From: Nanobdellota archaeon
GTDB lineage: Archaea; Nanobdellota; Nanobdellia; Pacearchaeales; GW2011-AR1
DNA: 38,390 nucleotides
Direction: 5' to 3'
NCBI GenBank assembly: GCA_030640395.1
Contig: DAOWJK010000011.1
Location: 1-38,390, forward strand
A program made the position numbers and the translations under genes. Within the stretch, counting starts at the first letter, position 1; every line of letters starts with the position of its first letter. Below are positions 1,402 through 30,507 of this stretch, piece by piece. The notes beneath the pieces were generated by a model. The model was not told where the DNA came from. It saw only the letters and a program-made list of their open reading frames with translations, and did no database searches.

Positions 1402-1585
1402 GCGATTTCCCTCGGAGGCTCTTAAAGAAATCGCTTCACGGAACAGGAAGGGAAGGAGTGTGCGAGCGATTTCGAGGCTCAACAAAGTTGAGTCATCCCA
1501 GTGGGATGGTAGGAAGTAAAATTTAAAATCAATAACCCGTGCGAAGTCGGGAGTTTGGGAAACCGCTTAGGTTTCTTTCATTTTT
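1402..1585 (+). ncRNA. structured GC-rich RNA / 5-prime leader candidate, copy A (paralog of 29474..29643)
   Basis: GC-rich island in AT-rich DNA. Shares blocks with copy B: TGCGATTTCC..CTCGGAGG, TTAAAGAAATCGC..CAC..GAACA..AAGGGAA, GAGCGATTTCG.GG, AATAACCCGTGCGAAGTC, GGGAGTTT. Hairpins: GGCTCAAC/GTTGAGTC (1476-1494), ATCCC/GGGAT (1495-1507), CCCG/CGGG (1536-1551). The terminal AAACC-GCTTA-GGTTT hairpin (1560-1574) is followed by CTTTCATTTTT. A TATA-like CTATAAAC lies about 25 nt upstream of 1402. Ends 1 nt before the ATG of the next ORF. Confidence 0.55.
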
Positions 1586-5967: not shown

Positions 5968-8562
5968 TTAATCTTTTGTTTTTGCTAATGATTTTCTTTT
6001 TCTCAAGGTTACAAATGTCCCTACCCCCACTAATCCAAGAATAAATATACCTACTATTAAAGATAATCTTTCTTTAATTGTTCCTATTACTGCACCAGTA
6101 ATTCCTACTGAATTTGTTTTAGGGATGTCCTCTGTTGTTGGGGTACTTGTTTCATTTGTATCAAGCCCTATTTTTGTTTGATTTTGATTTAGAGTTTCAT
6201 TTGTTTGACTATTATTTATAGTCTCCTTCGGAGTATAGCTTCCGCCGCCTCCTCCAGAACTTCCGCCAGTATCAGAAGGCGGTACCGGACATACTCCACA
6301 ATCTTTTGTGCAAGAAGAACAAGTTTCTCCACCATTACAATTTCCATCCCCGCAATATGTTTCCTGCTCTTTTATTCCAGAATGTTTTAATCCAGAAATT
6401 TTATATTGAGTATTGTTGTTTACTAATTCACAAACATAATTTGTATTTGAACTGGGACAACTTAACCATGTTTCATTTTCGCCTGTGCATGTTTCAGAAA
6501 TTTCACTAATATTTAAAATTTCAGCGTCTTTAATGCAAATTCCTGTCCCATTAAGCACTTTATTAAAGTAAATTGTTTTTGTTTGATTTTGAGAAGTTAA
6601 ATCCAATCCTTTAATTATTAAATAAGAAAAAGTGCTTTCATTGTTTTGTTTTTCTATAAATAAATCAGCGAGGTTTATTTTTCCTTCTGTTAAATTAAAA
6701 TCAAACTCTAACAAAGTTTCATTATTTTCTTTAAACTTAATTGTGTTATTTTCTTTTTCTAAAGTTAAATTTGTTAAGGTAGTATTGATATTAGTTTCAT
6801 TTCCCATAATTCCGTCCTTATTATAATCGCATAGTTCATACTGAAATTCAAAATATGTATTGTTATTCCATAAATCTAACTCGAGATTGGTTAAGGCATA
6901 ACAAATATTAAAATCATATTCTATTTTGGTTCTGTTTTGTAATTGGGAATCATTTTCTAAGCAAATTCCTTGATTTTGCCATCCACTCCAAGAAGAGTTT
7001 GTTATGTTAGGTAGACAATAATCACATACCCCAACATTTCTATATTCAATAATTGTTTTGTTATTTATTTCCCCACAATAATTGTTATCATATTGAATTA
7101 AATTTCTTGTTTGATTCATTGTATCATTTAATGAACAAGAAATATTATTCCAAGAGTCCCAAGAAGTATTAACTAAATTTGGTGTGCAAAAGTCACAAAA
7201 TTGTGGCTCAAATTCTAAGTAATTCCCCTCGTATAAATCAGAATTTAAACTTGTTTGAGCAAAACAATTATTTTTATCGTAAGTTTGGTTGCAATATTTA
7301 AAATCCTCTTCTTGACAATTTCCATAATCAACACATGTCCAGTTTGGTAAACAATAATCACAACTTTCATATGTTCCGTTATCAACAGGCAAACTATATG
7401 TTTTATTACAATCATTAACATCTGTGTAAGTTATTAAAACTAAATCATCTTGCTGACAAGAGTTTTCATTGTTTATCCAATTTGGCATGCAATCACAAAC
7501 ATCTCCAATCCCATTATTATCTAAATCTTCTTGACTTGGATTTTGATTATAAGGACAATTATCTATGGCATCATCAATCCCATCATTATCTATATCTGTA
7601 TTTGTAACAACATAACTCTCATCTAAGAAGAATTCTCCAATTAAAGTTGGGTCCCAATTCCAATAATCTAAAACATTCTCACTATAATCTATTCTAAAAA
7701 ATCCTGACTCCCCCCAACCAGTACCCCAACTATTTTTACAAATCCAATATTGGTTATTGTCATCATAACCTATGATAGAAACAGCGTGGAGACCTAAGTA
7801 ATCTCCATAAGCCCATTGATATATCCCAATAGAATAATCATAAAAATCTTCATAAACAGCCATATAAATAGTTACAGGTCCATAATCATTTATTGCTTGT
7901 TTTATTGTAGAGGGTGAACTCACTAGATTATAGTCAAGGATTTTTACTAATTCATTTTGCCAATTAACACATTTGTTTGAACACAATCCATCAGTTCCAG
8001 AATAAGGAAAACAAGATTCTTTTACTACACCATTTGTTTTAATATAGTCAAAAGTATCATCAGACCACCCCCCATTACAATCTCCTGCCTCACTACAAGA
8101 AACTAAATCTTGCTCTGATAAATCTATATTATAATCAGGATTATTTAAAGCAATATTAATTCTTGATTCTACAACACCAACTGCTGAAAAAGCCCAACAA
8201 CTTCCACAACTACCTTGAGATTTTATGGGGGTAGTCCAATCGCCACCATCTTTATTTCTCCAATCTATTGTAGAAGGATAACTTCCGATAAAATTAGTTT
8301 TTAAAAGTTTAGTTTCTTCACTTGACTTAGATCTTGTTTGTAATAATAATGCTTTTTTCTCTTCTAAAGATAAATAAGACATACTTGTTTCTCCAGCAGT
8401 CCACTCTTTACTTTCAGATTTTATTATCTTATTAATGTTGTTTATTCTATCTTCTACAAACAAGTTTGACGACTTAATAGAATCTTTTTTTATATCAAAA
8501 GTATTTGCTGAAATAATTGAGACAATAACTATGATTAAAACAAGGGAAATTAATTTTTTCAT
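5968..8562 (-). CDS. secreted, C-terminally membrane-anchored papain-like (C1 family) cysteine protease with Cys-rich repeat stalk
   Basis: 864 aa. Signal peptide, then catalytic motifs QGSCGSCWAFSAVG (Cys), HAVSIIGYD (His), NSWGTGWGESG (Asn/Trp). Calcium-binding thrombospondin-type-3-like DIDNDGIDDAIDNCPYNQNPSQEDLDNNGIGDVCD. Four CD[YFC]C.PN modules, many N-x-S/T sequons, a GGSSGGGGGS linker and a C-terminal TM helix plus RKRK. Confidence 0.8.
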   Translation of the reverse strand: MKKLISLVLIIVIVSIISANTFDIKKDSIKSSNLFVEDRINNINKIIKSESKEWTAGETSMSYLSLEEKKALLLQTRSKSSEETKLLKTNFIGSYPSTIDWRNKDGGDWTTPIKSQGSCGSCWAFSAVGVVESRINIALNNPDYNIDLSEQDLVSCSEAGDCNGGWSDDTFDYIKTNGVVKESCFPYSGTDGLCSNKCVNWQNELVKILDYNLVSSPSTIKQAINDYGPVTIYMAVYEDFYDYSIGIYQWAYGDYLGLHAVSIIGYDDNNQYWICKNSWGTGWGESGFFRIDYSENVLDYWNWDPTLIGEFFLDESYVVTNTDIDNDGIDDAIDNCPYNQNPSQEDLDNNGIGDVCDCMPNWINNENSCQQDDLVLITYTDVNDCNKTYSLPVDNGTYESCDYCLPNWTCVDYGNCQEEDFKYCNQTYDKNNCFAQTSLNSDLYEGNYLEFEPQFCDFCTPNLVNTSWDSWNNISCSLNDTMNQTRNLIQYDNNYCGEINNKTIIEYRNVGVCDYCLPNITNSSWSGWQNQGICLENDSQLQNRTKIEYDFNICYALTNLELDLWNNNTYFEFQYELCDYNKDGIMGNETNINTTLTNLTLEKENNTIKFKENNETLLEFDFNLTEGKINLADLFIEKQNNESTFSYLIIKGLDLTSQNQTKTIYFNKVLNGTGICIKDAEILNISEISETCTGENETWLSCPSSNTNYVCELVNNNTQYKISGLKHSGIKEQETYCGDGNCNGGETCSSCTKDCGVCPVPPSDTGGSSGGGGGSYTPKETINNSQTNETLNQNQTKIGLDTNETSTPTTEDIPKTNSVGITGAVIGTIKERLSLIVGIFILGLVGVGTFVTLRKRKSLAKTKD

Positions 8563-11167: not shown

Positions 11168-11950
11168 ATGGAAAATAAGATAACAACGCTCTTAGAAGAG
11201 TATGGTCTTGATAAAAAAGAAATTAAGATATATTTATTATTAGTTGAAAAAGGAGAACTAAATGCATATAGTTTAGCAAAAATCACAGGAATTCATAGAT
11301 CCACTACCTATGCCGTACTTGAGAGACTTCTCTCAAAAGGATTTATCAACAGAATTCAGAAAGATGAAAAAACATTTTACTCTGCTTTTGAAATCACTCA
11401 AACAATAACTAAAATAAAAGAAAAAGAATCAATACTTTTATCTCTTATCCCAGAATTTGAAAAAGTGCGAGAAGAAGGCATATCAAAAGTAAGAGTATTG
11501 GAAAGTAAAGAAAGTCAAAAACAATTTAATTTTAATTTATTTAATCAAATAAGTAAAGGAATAATTAAAGAATTGTATATTATTAGTGGGGGGTCTTCAG
11601 ATACAATAAATATTGGAAAAGAATCTTCAGAAAATTTAAGCTCAGAAATATTTTTAGAAAGTTTATTAAGAGAAATAAAAAGAAAAAAGATCCATAAGAA
11701 AATAAAATATAAAGGAATATGGAATGAAAAATTTAAAAGAAGTAAAATTTTAAAATTATTCTCGGAATTAGGGAAAAATAAATTTCTTGAAAAACTCCCA
11801 ACTTTAGCAACAACAGTTATTTTTGGGGAGTATCTTGTATACCTTTTCACAATGAATGGAGTTCCACAAGTAATAGAAATTCAAAATAAACTAATTGCAG
11901 AAGAAAATAAATTTTATTTTTCTTATCTATGGAAACAGGCTAAACCTTAA
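11168..11950 (+). CDS. TrmB family transcriptional regulator
   Basis: 260 aa. N-terminal winged helix L..YGL.KKEIKIYLLLVEKGELNAYSLAKITGIHRSTTYAVLERLLSKGFI is typical TrmB. Confidence 0.75.
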   Translation: MENKITTLLEEYGLDKKEIKIYLLLVEKGELNAYSLAKITGIHRSTTYAVLERLLSKGFINRIQKDEKTFYSAFEITQTITKIKEKESILLSLIPEFEKVREEGISKVRVLESKESQKQFNFNLFNQISKGIIKELYIISGGSSDTINIGKESSENLSSEIFLESLLREIKRKKIHKKIKYKGIWNEKFKRSKILKLFSELGKNKFLEKLPTLATTVIFGEYLVYLFTMNGVPQVIEIQNKLIAEENKFYFSYLWKQAKP

Positions 11951-21560: not shown

Positions 21561-23036
21561 TCATTCCAAAAACCTCTTTATAATCCCCATCGCCTCTCTC
21601 CCATCAACTTTCCCGGCAAACTTCTTCATTACCAATCCCATGTAAGCTTTCTCAGAAAGCCCGGGCTTGCCCTTGATAATTTTCATGATTTTTTCCTCAA
21701 CATTTCCTAAATCTGCTTTTTCAAACTTGACCGCACTGCTAACATCAACTCCCCTGGCAATTCTCTCTAAACTTTCCTTTATCTGCCTCTCGCTAATTTT
21801 CCCTTTTTTATATTTCTCCAAAACAAATGCAAGAATATCTTTGTTGCCCTCTATGTTTATATCTCCTTTCATAGAGGGTACACCCTTGGGTGCTGAAATA
21901 TTTTTAATCTTCCGCGCAATCTCTTTCGGAAATATCAAAACCACTTTCGCAATTAATTTTGGGTTGCTCACAATCTCCAGCAACTCCCTAAACTCCCCAA
22001 GTTTATTCATTTTGAAAATCAACTTTATCATCTCATGATTTAATCCCTTGCTGCTCAGTTCCTCTTCAATATCTTTTCTCAATCTGGGAAGATTCTTCTT
22101 AACTTTATTAATTAAATCTCTGGAAATCCTCAGCATCGGTAAATCAGTTTCAGGATACATCCTCGCTGAACCAGGCAGAGGTCTCAAAAAACTCGTGGTT
22201 GTGTCAGGATTTCCTCTCCGAACTTCTGCAACAGACTTTTTCTTTTTAACTAAATCAACCTGCCTTTCAATTTCGTTATTAATCGTAGGAACAATTAATT
22301 TTAAATTCTGAACACCTTTCATCTCAATTCTCTTCCCATTCTTAATAGAAATACTAACATCCTGCCGAATCGTGCCAATTCCCCGACGAACTCTGCAACT
22401 TCTCAAAATCTCCCCAATCTTCAGGCTGACATTCCTGGCCTGTTCAGGAGTTTTAATATCCGGAGCAGTCACAATTTCAACAAGAGGAATCCCCAACCTG
22501 TCCAGCCGATAAATTGTTTCGTCATCTTTTCGCTCCACAATCCTCGCAGCATCTTCCTCAAGAATCACGGCATTAATTCCAACTCTTCCTTCATCTGTCT
22601 CAACATAGCCATCCTGCGCAATTAAAACAGTCCTCTGAAAACCCGAAGTATTTGAACCATCAATAACAGTTTTTCTCATAATTTGTGTTATCGGAACAAT
22701 CTTGCAATTCAGCAAAAGCGAAATCTGCAAGGCAATCTCCAGCGCATCCTTATTTATCTCATGCGGCGGCTCCTCATCCAACTCAACAAGACAAGTTGTA
22801 TCATACCCCTGATAAACAAATTGCTTATCTTTTCCCATCTCATGTTTCGCCGCAACATCAACCTCTCCAGACTCTCCTGCAACAGCATGAAGTTTTCTCC
22901 TCACAATAAAATCAGGCTCGTCTTTCCTTAACAGCGACAGACAATTACAAAATAATTTTTTAGTGTCAAGTTGCTGATGAATCTCAAGCCCGCATTTAAA
23001 TCCTAATTTTTCGTAATCTAATTTTTCTTTTGACAT
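21561..23036 (-). CDS. gatE: Glu-tRNA(Gln) amidotransferase subunit E
   Basis: 491 aa. N-terminus LGFKCGLEIHQQLDTKKLFCNC, plus VDGSNTSGFQRT and RQDVSISI motifs of GatE. Shorter than typical GatE. Carries an in-frame element copy. Confidence 0.85.
   Translation of the reverse strand: MSKEKLDYEKLGFKCGLEIHQQLDTKKLFCNCLSLLRKDEPDFIVRRKLHAVAGESGEVDVAAKHEMGKDKQFVYQGYDTTCLVELDEEPPHEINKDALEIALQISLLLNCKIVPITQIMRKTVIDGSNTSGFQRTVLIAQDGYVETDEGRVGINAVILEEDAARIVERKDDETIYRLDRLGIPLVEIVTAPDIKTPEQARNVSLKIGEILRSCRVRRGIGTIRQDVSISIKNGKRIEMKGVQNLKLIVPTINNEIERQVDLVKKKKSVAEVRRGNPDTTTSFLRPLPGSARMYPETDLPMLRISRDLINKVKKNLPRLRKDIEEELSSKGLNHEMIKLIFKMNKLGEFRELLEIVSNPKLIAKVVLIFPKEIARKIKNISAPKGVPSMKGDINIEGNKDILAFVLEKYKKGKISERQIKESLERIARGVDVSSAVKFEKADLGNVEEKIMKIIKGKPGLSEKAYMGLVMKKFAGKVDGREAMGIIKRFLE
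21844..21893 (-). repeat. in-frame two-hairpin element, copy 5 (in gatE)
   Basis: + strand: TTG-CCCTCTATG-tttatatctccttt-CATAGAGGG-TACACCC-tt-GGGTGC. 9-bp stem at 21847-21855/21870-21878. 48/50 identical to copy 6. Translated as APKGVPSMKGDINIEGN. Confidence 0.8.
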
Positions 23037-26757: not shown

Positions 26758-28113
26758 ATGACAAAAATTGGATTAGAAATTCATGGTTATCTTTTAACAA
26801 ATGAAAAACTCTTCTGTGCTTGCAAATCAGAACACGGGCTAAAACATTCAAAACCGAACACAAATATCTGTGCTATTTGCACAGCCCAGCCAGGGGCAAA
26901 GCCAATGCTCCCAAATAAAACAGCCGTAAATAAAGTAATCCAAATTGCGTTAATTCTTGGATGCAAAATAAACGAAAAACTTGTATGGGCCAGGAAACAT
27001 TATGACTGGCCTGACCTGCCAAAAGGATATCAAAACACAATTTCTGGAGCTTATGCAATTCCTGTCGGAGAAAAAGGAAAATTTTTAGGAATACGAATTA
27101 CCGAGGCGCATCTTGAAGAAGACCCTGCAGCATGGAACCCAAAAACAGGGGAAATAGATTACAATCGTTCCGGAAGCCCTTTAATAGAAATTGTAACAGA
27201 ACCAGATTTTAAAAATTCCGAACAAGTAATTTCATGGCTAAAACAATTGCTCACAACTCTAAGTTACATAAAAGCCATTGACAAAAATCTGGGAATAAAA
27301 GCAGATGTAAATGTCTCTGTTTCAGGAGGAGCAAGAATTGAGATTAAAAACATAAACAGTCTGAAAAACATCAAAACAGCAATTGAATATGAGCTCCAAA
27401 AACAAAAAAAACAGCTTCCTAAAGTTCAGGAAACAAAAATGTTTGATGAAAGCAAAGCCATTACAATAAAAATGCGTTCAAAAGAACAAGCCCAGGATTA
27501 CAGATTTATTTCAGACCCGGACTTGCCGATAATAAAAATTGAAAAATCAAGAGTAGAAAAAATAAAATCTGCTTTGCCCGAAACTCCGTCAGAAAAACTA
27601 AAAAAGATTGTTAAAAAATATAAAATAGAAAAAACTTCAGCAGAAACTTTAACAAAAAAATTAGAAATTGTGGAGTTCTTTGAAAAAATAATTGAAAAAG
27701 CAAATCCAAAACTTGCAGTTCGTTGGGTAACTGAAGAACTTCTTAGTGTCCTGAATTACAACAAAAAAGAATTAGAAGATGTTGAAATAAAACCAGAACA
27801 TTTTATTGAATTGCTCAAACTTATAGAAGATAAAACAATTACAGAACTAAAAGCAAAAGATATTTTACGAAGCTGGAAAGAGAAATCACTTTCCCCAAAA
27901 CAAGAAATAAAAAAATTTTCTCAAATTTCAGACAAAAAAGAAATTCAAAAACTTGCTCAAAAAGTTATTAAAGAAAATTCAAAAGCAGTTGAAGATTACA
28001 AGTCAGGGAAAAAACAATCTTTGAATTTCTTAATTGGACAGGTAATGAGAGCAAGTGATAAGAGGGCTGATTTTGAAATGGCGAGAGATGTTTTGGTTAA
28101 AGAATTGGAATAA
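26758..28113 (+). CDS. gatB: Asp-tRNA(Asn)/Glu-tRNA(Gln) amidotransferase subunit B
   Basis: 451 aa. GLEIHGYL, PNTNICAICTAQPGAKP, EAHLEEDP and NRSG.PLIEIVTEPD motifs of GatB. C-terminal YqeY-like tail (LIGQVM). Confidence 0.9.
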   Translation: MTKIGLEIHGYLLTNEKLFCACKSEHGLKHSKPNTNICAICTAQPGAKPMLPNKTAVNKVIQIALILGCKINEKLVWARKHYDWPDLPKGYQNTISGAYAIPVGEKGKFLGIRITEAHLEEDPAAWNPKTGEIDYNRSGSPLIEIVTEPDFKNSEQVISWLKQLLTTLSYIKAIDKNLGIKADVNVSVSGGARIEIKNINSLKNIKTAIEYELQKQKKQLPKVQETKMFDESKAITIKMRSKEQAQDYRFISDPDLPIIKIEKSRVEKIKSALPETPSEKLKKIVKKYKIEKTSAETLTKKLEIVEFFEKIIEKANPKLAVRWVTEELLSVLNYNKKELEDVEIKPEHFIELLKLIEDKTITELKAKDILRSWKEKSLSPKQEIKKFSQISDKKEIQKLAQKVIKENSKAVEDYKSGKKQSLNFLIGQVMRASDKRADFEMARDVLVKELE

Positions 28114-28268: not shown

Positions 28269-29252
28269 TTAATTAGCAGTGCATTGACAATCTTGATAAC
28301 TATCAGACTTGGCTGATCCAATTAGCCCTGCAGGGCCCATACTCGCAGTACCGCAAATCAGAGATTCTTCGCACGAATTTACATATTTTGTAAAATGTTG
28401 TGTTTTAAAACAAATTACACCATATTCATTCCAAATAGTACGATATTGCCCGCCCGGAGATGTAAATTCGCCAAATGGTCCTGACATAGAATACCAATCA
28501 GTGCTACAAGCACCATAATGATGTGATACATAATTTATTCTCGCGTAGTATTGTCCATTTTCAAATTTTCCACTAAATGATCCTGACACAGGATATGAAC
28601 CCGCTCCTATACAAGAACAACTTATTATGCATGGTTGAATATTACAACTCTGCGACTCTGTAGAAGAGCCAGAGCAAGTTGCTCCCCCGCATTCTGGAGC
28701 AGGATTTGTACAGGTTCTTGTTCTTGTTTGAGTTCCACCGCCACACGAAACAGAACAAGCACTCCAGCCAGACCATGCACTCCATCCTCCATCTACAGGA
28801 ACACAACCAAACTCCCCTCCATTAATTGCATCTTGTAAACTCATTTCAGAACCGTCTACAGAAATTAAAATCTCGTCTGCACTATGCCCAAAAACTATAT
28901 TAGAATTATATGAGGATGAAACACTTCCGTATAACGAAGAATCAATTGCCTGTTGCAAATTCATCTCATTGCCATTAACAGAAACATAAATATCATTTCC
29001 AGTATGATAAGCTCCTGAAATTTCTGTTGTGTAGTCCTGTGTTGGAGATGGAGCACCCTCAACAAGAAAACCATTATCTATTGCCTCCTGCAAAGTCATT
29101 GTAAAACCATCTACAGAAACCAAAACAGCGTCGCATCCATGCCCGGGATTTGGAATTTGTTGAGTATATTCATATGCAATAATAATGCCCACTATTAACA
29201 AAACTACCGCTATTGAAATAAAAATTATTTTATTAGAAAATTTATTCACCAT
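28269..29252 (-). CDS. secreted protein with three short tandem repeats and one thrombospondin type 1 (TSP1/TSR) repeat
   Basis: 327 aa. N-terminal TM/signal segment. Three VS(V)DG.(E)M.LQ.AI repeats. Then [52 protein letters not shown], the canonical WSxW...CSxxCGxGxxxRxRxC TSR pattern. Visibly higher G+C than its neighbours. Confidence 0.7.
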
Positions 29253-29372: not shown

Positions 29373-29473
29373 TGATACAACAAGAAAAAAAAGGTTTTTA
29401 TAGTTTAGGATTTTAATTAAAATATAAAAAAGAAGATGAAACAATCAATTAAATTAAACAGGATTGCCCTTGT

Positions 29474-29643
29474 GCGATTTCCATCTCGGAGGTCGAGCGA
29501 TTTCGTGGTAGGGACAAATTTGAAAATGAACAATAACCCGTGCGAAGTCCCATGGCTGATTGCCATTAGGCAATGCGGGAGTTTTAAAGAAATCGCCCAC
29601 CTGAACAAAAAGGGAAATCCCAAAAAACCGCTTAGGTTTTTTT
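29474..29643 (+). ncRNA. structured GC-rich RNA / 5-prime leader candidate, copy B (paralog of 1402..1585)
   Basis: Shares the blocks listed for copy A, but the TTAAAGAAATCGC..GAACA..AAGGGAA block sits near the 3-prime end (29584-29616). The CCCG/CGGG stem (29537-29540/29576-29579) encloses an extra TTGCC-atta-GGCAA hairpin (29560-29573). Terminal AAACC-GCTTA-GGTTT (29625-29639) plus a T7 tract ends 3 nt before the ATG at 29647. Confidence 0.55.
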
Positions 29644-29646
29644 GAA

Positions 29647-30507
29647 ATGGCACTCAGAAAACACCACAAAATAATAATTGGTGGACTTAGTACATTTCTT
29701 CTAGTCTTATTAATAGCAAACAGCGTGTTTATTTATTTTCTCTATGGGCAGTTGCAATTAAGTTACAATAAAATAGAATCAGATATAACAGAATTAAAAA
29801 CAGACACCCAAAGTAAATTCAATGAACTAACCACAAGCATCCTCCAGGCACAGGAAGAATTAAATTCACTTGGCTCTCAAATTGGCTCAATGGGACAGGA
29901 AATGGATTTGCTCAAAGCCTCGGCAAGTGCGGATTTTTCAGGAATCATCGAAGACGCAATCAAGTCTGTTGTAACAATAAGAACAGACATTAGCCAGGGA
30001 ACAGGATTCATCATAGACCAGGAAGGATATATTGTAACAAACTACCATGTAATGGAAAACGCAAAATCAGCGGGAATTTTTACATATGACAGCGAAACAT
30101 ATTCAGTAAATTTAATCGGGTACAACAGCAATTTTGATATTGCATTATTAAAAATTTCCGGAGATTTTGAAAAGCTAAAACTTGCAGATTCCGACGACAT
30201 TCAAATAGGAGAAAAAGTAATTGCAATAGGAAATCCATTAGGATTGCAATTCTCTGTTTCAGAAGGAATTGTCTCGGCAGTTCACAGGCCAGGACCAAGC
30301 GGGGTCAACGCATACATCCAAACCGACGCAGCACTAAATCCTGGAAATTCAGGAGGCCCTTTAATCAACAAAAAAGGAAAAGTAATCGGAATTAATAATT
30401 TCAAAATTGGAGGAGGAGAAAGTCTTGGCTTTGCATTAGAATCAAATTACATAGAAAGTATTGTAAATGAAATCGCACTGGAAAAATTAAACCAGACATT
30501 AATTTAA
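29647..30507 (+). CDS. membrane-anchored trypsin-like serine protease (HtrA/DegP-like S1C, no obvious PDZ)
   Basis: 286 aa. N-terminal TM helix and coiled-coil-like segment. Catalytic triad contexts TNYHV (His), DIALLK (Asp), GNSGGPL (Ser). Confidence 0.8.
   Translation: MALRKHHKIIIGGLSTFLLVLLIANSVFIYFLYGQLQLSYNKIESDITELKTDTQSKFNELTTSILQAQEELNSLGSQIGSMGQEMDLLKASASADFSGIIEDAIKSVVTIRTDISQGTGFIIDQEGYIVTNYHVMENAKSAGIFTYDSETYSVNLIGYNSNFDIALLKISGDFEKLKLADSDDIQIGEKVIAIGNPLGLQFSVSEGIVSAVHRPGPSGVNAYIQTDAALNPGNSGGPLINKKGKVIGINNFKIGGGESLGFALESNYIESIVNEIALEKLNQTLI

Follow-up and report, generated by a model that had tools for sequence, protein, structure and literature searches.

Rickettsia palindromic elements (RPEs) are short hairpin-forming repeats of a reduced genome, often found in frame within unrelated genes (PMC10969869). 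They are the closest known system to the family of elements described here. The likeness lies in a high-copy hairpin repeat residing in reduced genomes, in intergenic positions as well as beside or inside RNA genes (PMC10969869), and in repeated, stop-free, in-frame insertion into unrelated protein genes, each of which thereby gains a peptide segment. Both features are found in the DPANN family, with 72 unique copies of a hairpin repeat and in-frame insertions in several unrelated genes. However, the DPANN element is archaeal, bears no sequence relation to RPEs and has a shorter core of ~80 nt. Most of its copies also share one orientation and immediately precede a start codon or the 5' end of a tRNA, many of its upstream frames stop at the ATG of the gene, and it is modular, carrying nested expansions such as the module termed X below.

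MITEs, ERIC/RU and Correia elements are likewise small, non-autonomous and multi-copy, are co-transcribed with their neighbours, and in some cases contain open frames or lie in genes (PMC2759123; PMC10969869). Unlike MITEs, the DPANN element has neither terminal inverted repeats nor target-site duplications and its orientation is strictly fixed, and unlike Correia elements it has no internal promoter. The PATE elements, which are derived from IS200/IS605, and the REP/REPIN sequences share with it conserved hairpins in place of inverted ends, along with a strand-specific structure, but no GTAG or CGTC tag was seen in the DPANN element and its copies are not paired inverted REPs.

The window, by which is meant the whole stretch of DNA analysed here (38,390 nucleotides), encodes eIF2-beta, DUF424 and GatE proteins. 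The nearest named homolog is from Candidatus Pacearchaeota, and the source of the window is a Pacearchaeota-like DPANN archaeon. Two loci within it, copies A and B, are two expanded copies of an undescribed, interspersed, high-copy repeat of Pacearchaeota/Woesearchaeota (DPANN) genomes. The parts of the two copies and the genes that follow them are these:

1400-1519, + strand: open frame of copy A, from the ATG at 1400 (MRFPSEALKEIASRNRKG...) into module X, ending at TAA 1517-1519, 66 nt before the DUF424 ATG
1402-1434, + strand: P1 (5' hairpin) of copy A, arms GCGATTTC at 1402-1409 and GAAATCGC at 1427-1434, with a 17-nt loop containing GGAGG
1435-1454, + strand: purine-rich linker of copy A, TTCACGGAACAGGAAGGGAA, part of the 33-nt block reported earlier as shared
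1455-1556, + strand: module X of copy A, between linker and P3 (X profile match 1463-1556)
1468-1473 with 1543-1548, + strand: Px1 of copy A (pair counts)
1509-1514 with 1536-1542, + strand: Px2 of copy A (pair counts)
1478-1492 and 1494-1508, + strand: two extra hairpins in module X of copy A
1557-1577, + strand: P3 (3' hairpin) of copy A, GGGAAACC at 1557-1564, loop GCTTA, GGTTTCTT at 1570-1577
1586-1900, + strand: DUF424 gene, directly 3' of copy A (Pfam PF04242, E=3e-18)
29436-29645, + strand: 69-codon open frame through the whole of copy B (MKQSIKLNRIALVRFPS...KKPLRFF*), ending at TGA 29643-29645, 1 nt before the protease ATG
29474-29596, + strand: P1 of copy B, arms at 29474-29481 and 29589-29596
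29495-29581, + strand: module X of copy B, in the P1 loop (X profile match 29486-29549)
29499-29504 with 29544-29549, + strand: Px1 of copy B (pair counts)
29508-29513 with 29537-29543, + strand: Px2 of copy B (pair counts)
29550-29575, + strand: extra hairpin in module X of copy B
29597-29616, + strand: purine-rich linker of copy B, CCACCTGAACAAAAAGGGAA
29620-29644, + strand: P3 of copy B, CCAAAAAACC at 29620-29629, loop GCTTA, GGTTTTTTTG at 29635-29644
29647-30507, + strand: trypsin-like (HtrA-like) protease gene, directly 3' of copy B (Pfam Trypsin_2, E=1e-35)

All of the blocks that a preliminary description of this DNA had reported as common to the two loci are present where it placed them. 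The 18-mer AATAACCCGTGCGAAGTC is identical at 1531-1548 and 29532-29549, and its 13-nt core CCCGTGCGAAGTC has only two sites in the window, both within AATAACCCGTGCGAAGTC, against 0.03 expected. A further block, AAACCGCTTAGGTTT, is identical at 1560-1574 and 29625-29639, while GCGATTTC or its complement occurs nine times in the window (0.64 expected), with six of the nine falling within the two copies. The rearranged order of these blocks is equally real, the 33-nt block being 5' in copy A (1422-1454) and 3' in copy B (29584-29616). The terminal hairpin is the same in the two copies, and each adjoins an ATG, at 1586 in copy A, where TCATTTTT follows P3, and at 29647 in copy B. The preliminary description had read this arrangement as the same hairpin plus a T tract abutting the ATG; the hairpin and the ATG are as it stated, but the T run is the 3' strand of the hairpin itself and no tract comes after it. 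A global alignment of copy A against copy B was uninformative because of the nesting of module X.

The core of the element is ~80 nt long (typically 78-83 nt, mode 80), with the consensus TRY-GCGAUUUCC-AUCGGAGGCUCUUAAA-GAAAUCGC-(6 nt)-GAACARRAAGGGARAUUCC-AAAAAACC-GCUUA-GGUUUUUUUG. Its parts are P1, an 8-bp hairpin on the 5' side (GCGAUUUC/GAAAUCGC), then a linker rich in purines, and P3, a 3' hairpin of 10 bp rich in A/U. P1 is paired in 99.7% of cells, with two compensatory double changes and 10 single changes that give G.U. In one copy (L018, at 2306), a C>U change turns the second codon into TGA, and the 3' arm of P1 carries the compensating change. Among the unpaired stretches, the GAACA..AAGGGA of the linker shows the strongest conservation across the family. 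P3 has the loop GCUUA or a GNRA-like loop (GCGA, GCAA, GCCA) and is paired in 87.7% of cells, compared with 33-70% when the partner strand is slid. Its double-change cells number 25 versus 6.2 ± 2.0 in shuffles, none of 500 shuffles reaching 25, and its closing pair takes four forms (CG 17, GC 6, AU 3, UA 1). Of 21 single-sided changes, 17 result in G.U and not in A.C, and it is therefore the sense strand that folds, in the form of RNA or of single-stranded DNA with the same sequence. The structured character of these loci is thus supported, by hairpins of the sense strand and their covariation.

Since the T run is the 3' strand of P3, a covarying stem, there is no terminator tail, and in most variants the run is interrupted to ≤4 Ts. 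An element resembling an intrinsic terminator, with a G+C-rich hairpin followed by an unpaired T tract, was rejected on the same grounds, the T run being paired inside the A/U-rich P3. In Rfam at the gathering score, the window yielded tRNAs only (two); at E<=10 the two copy regions gave nothing meaningful, and 10 related loci gave tRNA and rRNA matches only. The scan that the preliminary description had proposed accordingly agrees with its failure to recognise any known RNA family. Inspection by eye found no fit to RNase P (CR-I/CR-V-like GAAGUC, CGCUUA), SRP RNA, C/D or H/ACA RNAs, K-turns or hammerhead-like cores. The template and variable repeats of DGRs do not fit either, and the mismatches that separate copy A from copy B lack adenine specificity.

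The blocks GAGCGATTTCG(a/t)GG ... AATAACCCGTGCGAAGTC ... GGGAG are parts of a second module, X. This module forms an irregular hairpin consisting of Px1 (GAUUUC/GAAGUC), a 3-nt bulge, Px2 (GUAGGG/CCC(G)UGC) and an A/U-rich closing loop; 92.9% of its cells are paired versus 29-48% in slid controls, and two of its pairs covary. X is nested in the P1 loop of copy B, which it expands from 17 to 107 nt, and in the P1 loops of L016, L020 and L015; in copy A it is situated between the linker and P3. It also exists alone, without a core, at six loci (L005, L011, L017, L064, L083, L091), and four of these six lone copies follow a tRNA of the same strand at a distance of 36-230 nt. Other copies of the core carry expansions of 18, 30, 54 or 57 nt. 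At the orthologous tRNA-Arg/protease site, the relative L030 has a plain 80-nt core with a 17-nt P1 loop and no X, and at the orthologous DUF424 site the relative L003 has a plain 75-nt core, also without X. Copies A and B are therefore two cores in which X is nested at different points, and not the partly permuted versions of a single RNA that the preliminary description had taken them to be.

The extent of the family was assessed with the pattern GAAATCGC-N6-GAACA-NN-AAGGGA, drawn from the part common to A, B and L003. It recovered ~55 true copies in public Pacearchaeota/Woesearchaeota DNA. Its matches fall on five contigs of one Pacearchaeota MAG, in three Woesearchaeota MAGs and at 73 metagenome loci, and two of the metagenome contigs, 173-195 kb long, hold five copies apiece. 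A few matches in G+C-rich bacterial coding regions are attributable to chance. A profile built from family copies gave ~100 matches, 72 of them unique, in 649 kb of retrieved DNA, with a maximum of five on a single contig of 195 kb. The structured repeat has a density of about one per 20-35 kb, and the element also forms tandem arrays (L039, L053). In the window itself the profile search found no copy beyond A and B. The viral contigs searched contained no core copy and a single chance match to X inside a coding region. Within the limits of the collection searched, the literature holds no description of this repeat family. A search of related metagenomes, as earlier suggested, does then recover many relatives, and the reading of the loci as a two-copy paralogous RNA fails for that reason, as they are two members of an interspersed family with dozens of copies. 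Because family copies are related by descent, the p-values given below overstate independence and are indicative only.

Gain or loss of the element can be followed in the spacer between the DUF5679 and DUF424 genes, which is 241 nt long in the window and 129 nt in L003, a close relative (DUF424 86% identical) whose spacer holds a 75-nt core. The more distant relatives L005 and L008 have no element there, and their spacers measure 34 and 10 nt, respectively. Across about 67 contexts, the element ends 0-12 nt from a co-oriented ATG in ~38 and lies 0-4 nt before a tRNA in seven, with most copies ending 0-7 nt before a co-oriented ATG or tRNA. One tRNA-adjacent copy is located in a 16S-23S spacer (L032; SSU end 226, element 318-401, tRNA 404-517, LSU from 882), and a few copies adjoin convergent gene ends. 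The genes that follow the element encode S3Ae, L24e, L10e, L11, S4e, S10, Spt5, aIF1A, aEF-1beta and PheT, as well as SMC, DUF424, protease and membrane proteins.

Other copies are intragenic, in frame and free of stops, as in the genes for a topoisomerase (L069), an ERCC4/XPF nuclease (L027), a nucleotidyltransferase (L022) and the N-terminus of an MFS transporter (L029); the topoisomerase and ERCC4 Pfam domains extend across the insertion. The Bud32 kinase has two insertions, one between HGDLTTSN and DFG in L083 and one after the first codons in L055, and these orthologs are ~85% identical apart from the element, the position of which differs between them. No terminal inverted repeats were detected, the 5' end (TRYGCGATTTCC) and the 3' end (GGTTnTTTTG) not being inverted copies, and no consistent direct repeat marks the junctions of intragenic or intergenic copies as a target-site duplication. 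Nor is there a clear target motif, as only T-R-Y precedes P1.

In 17 of 33 genes in the window, exactly 21 nt separate the end of a TTTAWAAA box from the ATG, a fixed distance from which it follows that the mRNAs are leaderless. A promoter PWM was trained on these window promoters and then applied to the copies of other organisms. It scores 10-17 bits on real promoters, while at the same offset within the element the median is -9.8 bits, and even if the best score within ±3 nt is taken, the median is -0.5 bits, under the 99th percentile of background. On these scores it was rejected that P3, with its A-rich 5' strand, supplies a TATA box at 21 nt from the gene, and the PWM finds no promoter-like box inside the element by which it could act as a mobile promoter for the downstream gene. 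The earlier argument that there is no TATA/BRE promoter before the downstream ATG consequently holds at the spacing used by this organism, and so does the conclusion drawn from it: with no promoter-like box inside the element, the downstream genes must be read through. Strong promoter matches lie instead in front of P1, at a distance of 2-50 nt, in 22 of 63 copies, those upstream of tRNAs among them. In L059, L064, L042, L076 and L077, the start predicted by the PWM is the ATG of the frame that is open through the element, and a simple 8-mer search adds L043 and L062, also with a predicted start on the ATG of an element-spanning frame. Copies A and B have no strong promoter match upstream, and copy A may be co-transcribed with the DUF5679 gene.

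The core contains a conserved open frame, CGA UUU CCn UCG GAG GCU (RFPSEA...), which copy A has in common with the family. Among the 38 copies before coding genes, the frame remains open to ≤22 nt from the gene ATG in 33, and in 16 coding-upstream copies its stop lies at -1 to +1 (TGATG, TGA-ATG, TAATG). Early stops occur in four of seven tRNA-upstream versus four of 38 coding-upstream copies (p=0.013, for copies related by descent). Frame openness, rather than the peptide sequence, seems to be what is kept where a protein gene follows, and pairing is kept everywhere. By exact measurement, expansion lengths keep the frame in five of seven independent modules, a proportion that makes expansion in multiples of three suggestive and not strong evidence of coding.

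These features recall the upstream frames of termination-reinitiation, in which a short frame similarly ends at, overlaps or stops 1-3 nt from the main start, and the Shine-Dalgarno-like GAGGU or UAGGU of P3, 7-10 nt before the gene start, adds to the resemblance. The DPANN case differs in that the upstream frame is itself a structured repeat, recurring ahead of dozens of unrelated genes, and in that its translation is predicted. The frame adjoins the gene start in copy B, with its stop 1 nt before the ATG, and does not in copy A, where the stop falls inside X; with this stop 66 nt off and no strong promoter upstream, coupling is doubtful at copy A. As a candidate leader, the element is read through and probably translated.

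The explanation that we favour, and judge fairly probable, is a mobile repeat akin to the Rickettsia palindromic elements, persisting where it does little harm, either as a read-through, translated leader coupled to a gene start or as an in-frame peptide insertion. We infer its mobility, its translation and coupling, and its selfish or tolerated rather than useful status. On this explanation, a core of ~80 nt, transcribed on the sense strand and keeping a stop-free frame, would have spread to many sites, with the survivors being those where harm is small. One tolerated site would be between the promoter or leaderless start and the ATG, or just before a tRNA 5' end, where the element would become a 5' leader transcribed from the upstream promoter; many such leaders would be translated as a short upstream frame stopping at or beside the gene start, an arrangement suited to termination-reinitiation. 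The other would be in frame inside coding sequences, adding ~28 residues. Module X, which exists also on its own, would have become nested at different points in the two window copies, generating their apparent permutation.

Against a mobile repeat stands the placement of the element, in a single orientation with ends exactly at start codons, which is tighter than random insertion and selection easily explain; such precision could reflect a function or a targeting mechanism. The enrichment of downstream genes for translation factors and ribosomal proteins would also fit a regulon, though such genes dominate these small genomes. A functional, common cis-regulatory leader would make sense of copies that keep so strictly to one orientation and to one place before start codons and tRNA 5' ends. 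Through its hairpins and purine tract it would interact with some protein or ligand, or else make the 5' end more stable, thereby co-regulating translation-apparatus genes and tRNAs, and the intragenic copies would be accidental by-products. The conservation of both hairpins with sense-strand covariation, the predicted promoters that make the elements transcribed 5' leaders, and the many downstream genes for ribosomal proteins (S3Ae, L24e, L10e, L11, S4e, S10) or translation factors (aIF1A, aEF-1beta) all speak for it, and riboswitches and ribosomal-protein leaders are likewise structured RNAs in the 5' leaders of translation-related genes. Unlike these, however, the DPANN element matches no Rfam family, is present or absent at orthologous intergenic sites even between close relatives, and occurs in tandem. 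It precedes unrelated genes too (SMC, protease, membrane proteins), and the stability of the whole-sequence fold is modest (z = -2.3 for copy A, -1.8 for copy B). A riboswitch or other dedicated regulator, as the preliminary description had envisaged for the two loci, is hard to reconcile with copies in the frames of topoisomerase, XPF and Bud32, to which those in the nucleotidyltransferase and MFS transporter genes may be added, with copies before tRNAs and in the rRNA spacer, and with absence from the same site in relatives. A cis-regulatory role, the main rival, is considered unlikely. Equally unlikely is a mobile "translated leader" cassette that homes to the transcription or translation starts of leaderless archaeal genes and to tRNA 5' ends, perhaps targeted by the single-stranded promoter bubble or an RNA intermediate. 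Such a cassette would make the transcripts of leaderless genes two-frame and coupled, with structure at their 5' end, and may have been recruited to co-regulate or stabilise translation-apparatus transcripts, with X as a second, independently mobile structured RNA that nests in the first.

How a mobile repeat would move is a narrower matter. One specific proposal derives the repeat, as a non-autonomous form, from an element of the IS200/IS605 type (single-strand, HUH transposase) or from another hairpin-recognising system, and draws on the hairpin near each end, the lack of terminal inverted repeats and target duplication, the strand-specific structure and the fixed orientation. The hairpins of IS608 are subterminal, whereas those of the DPANN element reach nearly to its ends, and no conserved target tetranucleotide was found, with only T-R-Y before P1. 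This derivation appears improbable. Small non-coding RNA genes that are independent of the genes they happen to precede, each having a promoter and a terminator of its own, would account for the promoters just upstream of many copies, the 3'-end hairpin with its T run and the lone X modules downstream of tRNAs. Yet the downstream gene begins 0-7 nt later, with no room or promoter-like box of its own, the T run is paired in P3 and mostly interrupted, and copies lie in frame inside coding sequences; we regard this reading as very improbable. Genes for a functional protein of ~40 aa (M-K-x-Q-x-I-K-L-...-RFPSEALKEIA-..-KG-.SKKPLRFF), for instance a truncated, ribbon-helix-helix-like DNA- or RNA-binding peptide, would explain the in-frame ATG starts of many copies, some of them exactly at a predicted leaderless start. 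The third-position variation (CCA/CCC/CCG/CCT, GCA/GCT/GCC) and the lengths of the spacers between the head (M-K-x-Q-x-I-K-L...) and the core also favour a protein, these being multiples of three; 10 of 12 distinct cases have a spacer of either 15 or 18 nt (p=5e-4, again for copies related by descent). Nevertheless, several copies with a stop at codon 2 keep the hairpin pairing, and a loop variant shorter by 1 nt (L076, L077, L069) opens another frame with a wholly different peptide, which in L076 and L077 still ends at TAATG. Nucleotide conservation exceeds any coding need (CGA TTT and GAA ATC are fixed), the frame of module X differs between copy A and L015 and carries stops, the element peptides have no Pfam match, and a protein search with the consensus peptide found three small database proteins only. 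A gene for a small protein likewise seems very improbable.

DPANN genomes are tiny and gene-dense, and are thought to be poor in repetitive DNA. Against this background, a structured repeat forms part of 5' leaders, both of ribosomal-protein genes and of tRNAs, and is present in an rRNA spacer and, in frame, inside essential enzymes of such compact genomes. The mobile repeat, if it is one, would be an archaeal counterpart of the in-frame palindromic elements of Rickettsia, and would suggest that parasites of one kind are tolerated by reduced symbiont genomes of both domains. It has a bearing, too, on the way in which leaderless genes handle insertions at their start, and the exact 21-nt promoter geometry, together with stops beside the ATG, makes translational coupling directly testable in uncultured archaea. 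For annotation, the element is a source of spurious small proteins, such as that of the 69-aa frame at 29436-29645, and of extended N-termini introduced by gene callers, and the repeat may also break assemblies.

The repeat family to which the two elements of the window belong is assembled from more parts than the approximately 80-nt core and its nested second hairpin, module X, since a third repeat module, resembling GGCGAGGAAGGGTTTCAAAGGGAAACCTCGGTTAATGGCGGTTACCCTTTG, lies immediately 5′ of the core at several of the related loci, namely at the 1951 copy in L058, the 4727 copy in L025 and the 4761 copy in L020.

Module X is itself also encountered alone. Solitary copies are located 36–230 nt 3′ of tRNA genes and on the same strand as these, an arrangement that, judged from position, is as if they formed parts of tRNA trailers:

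L083, 183–300
L011, 7865–7960
L064, 394–332, minus strand
L017, 6645–6570, minus strand

Tandem arrays of the element are found at L039 (100–810; three copies within approximately 700 nt) and at L053 (1078–1271; two copies). At L032, a copy (318–401) is situated in the rRNA operon spacer, flanked by the 3′ end of the 16S gene and an intron-containing spacer tRNA; rRNA-spacer elements were also noted for L021 and L078, the copies of which carry TGA as codon 2. A short frame resembling the N-terminus of Bud32 (MLQKLIAPSPA...YQGAEAKTL*; L083, oriented coordinates 11438–11570) is split by an expanded copy and lies approximately 500 nt away from an intact Bud32 gene, which has an element copy inside it as well. 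At L005 (2104–5502), an intein that carries a LAGLIDADG endonuclease splits an MCM helicase gene.

The frame at window 29436–29645, which runs through copy B, the element upstream of the HtrA-like protease gene, is listed in public gene calls as a hypothetical protein of 69 amino acids (L002, 2790–2999). Throughout the repeat family, gene calls of this type probably represent either leader frames or artefacts of annotation.

The promoters of the window follow an extremely regular geometry: in 17 of the 33 genes, a TTTAWAAA box ends exactly 21 nt 5′ of the ATG, and an AGWAAG motif, A/G-rich and BRE-like, stands in front of the box. This geometry implies that the mRNAs of the organism are almost universally leaderless. 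Such promoters stand upstream of most genes, for example those at:

2296, 3669, 11991, 26758, 30585 and 35967

Domain matches were obtained for several of the encoded proteins:

28269–29252, minus strand, 327-amino acid protein with a thrombospondin type-1 repeat
5968–8562, minus strand, 864-amino acid papain-family peptidase with a thrombospondin type-3 repeat
26758–28113, plus strand, GatB_N catalytic domain protein
21561–23036, minus strand, GatB_N catalytic domain protein

The two GatB_N proteins are likely GatB and GatE. The thrombospondin type-1 and type-3 repeats are adhesion repeats of a eukaryote-like kind, present here in a DPANN archaeon.
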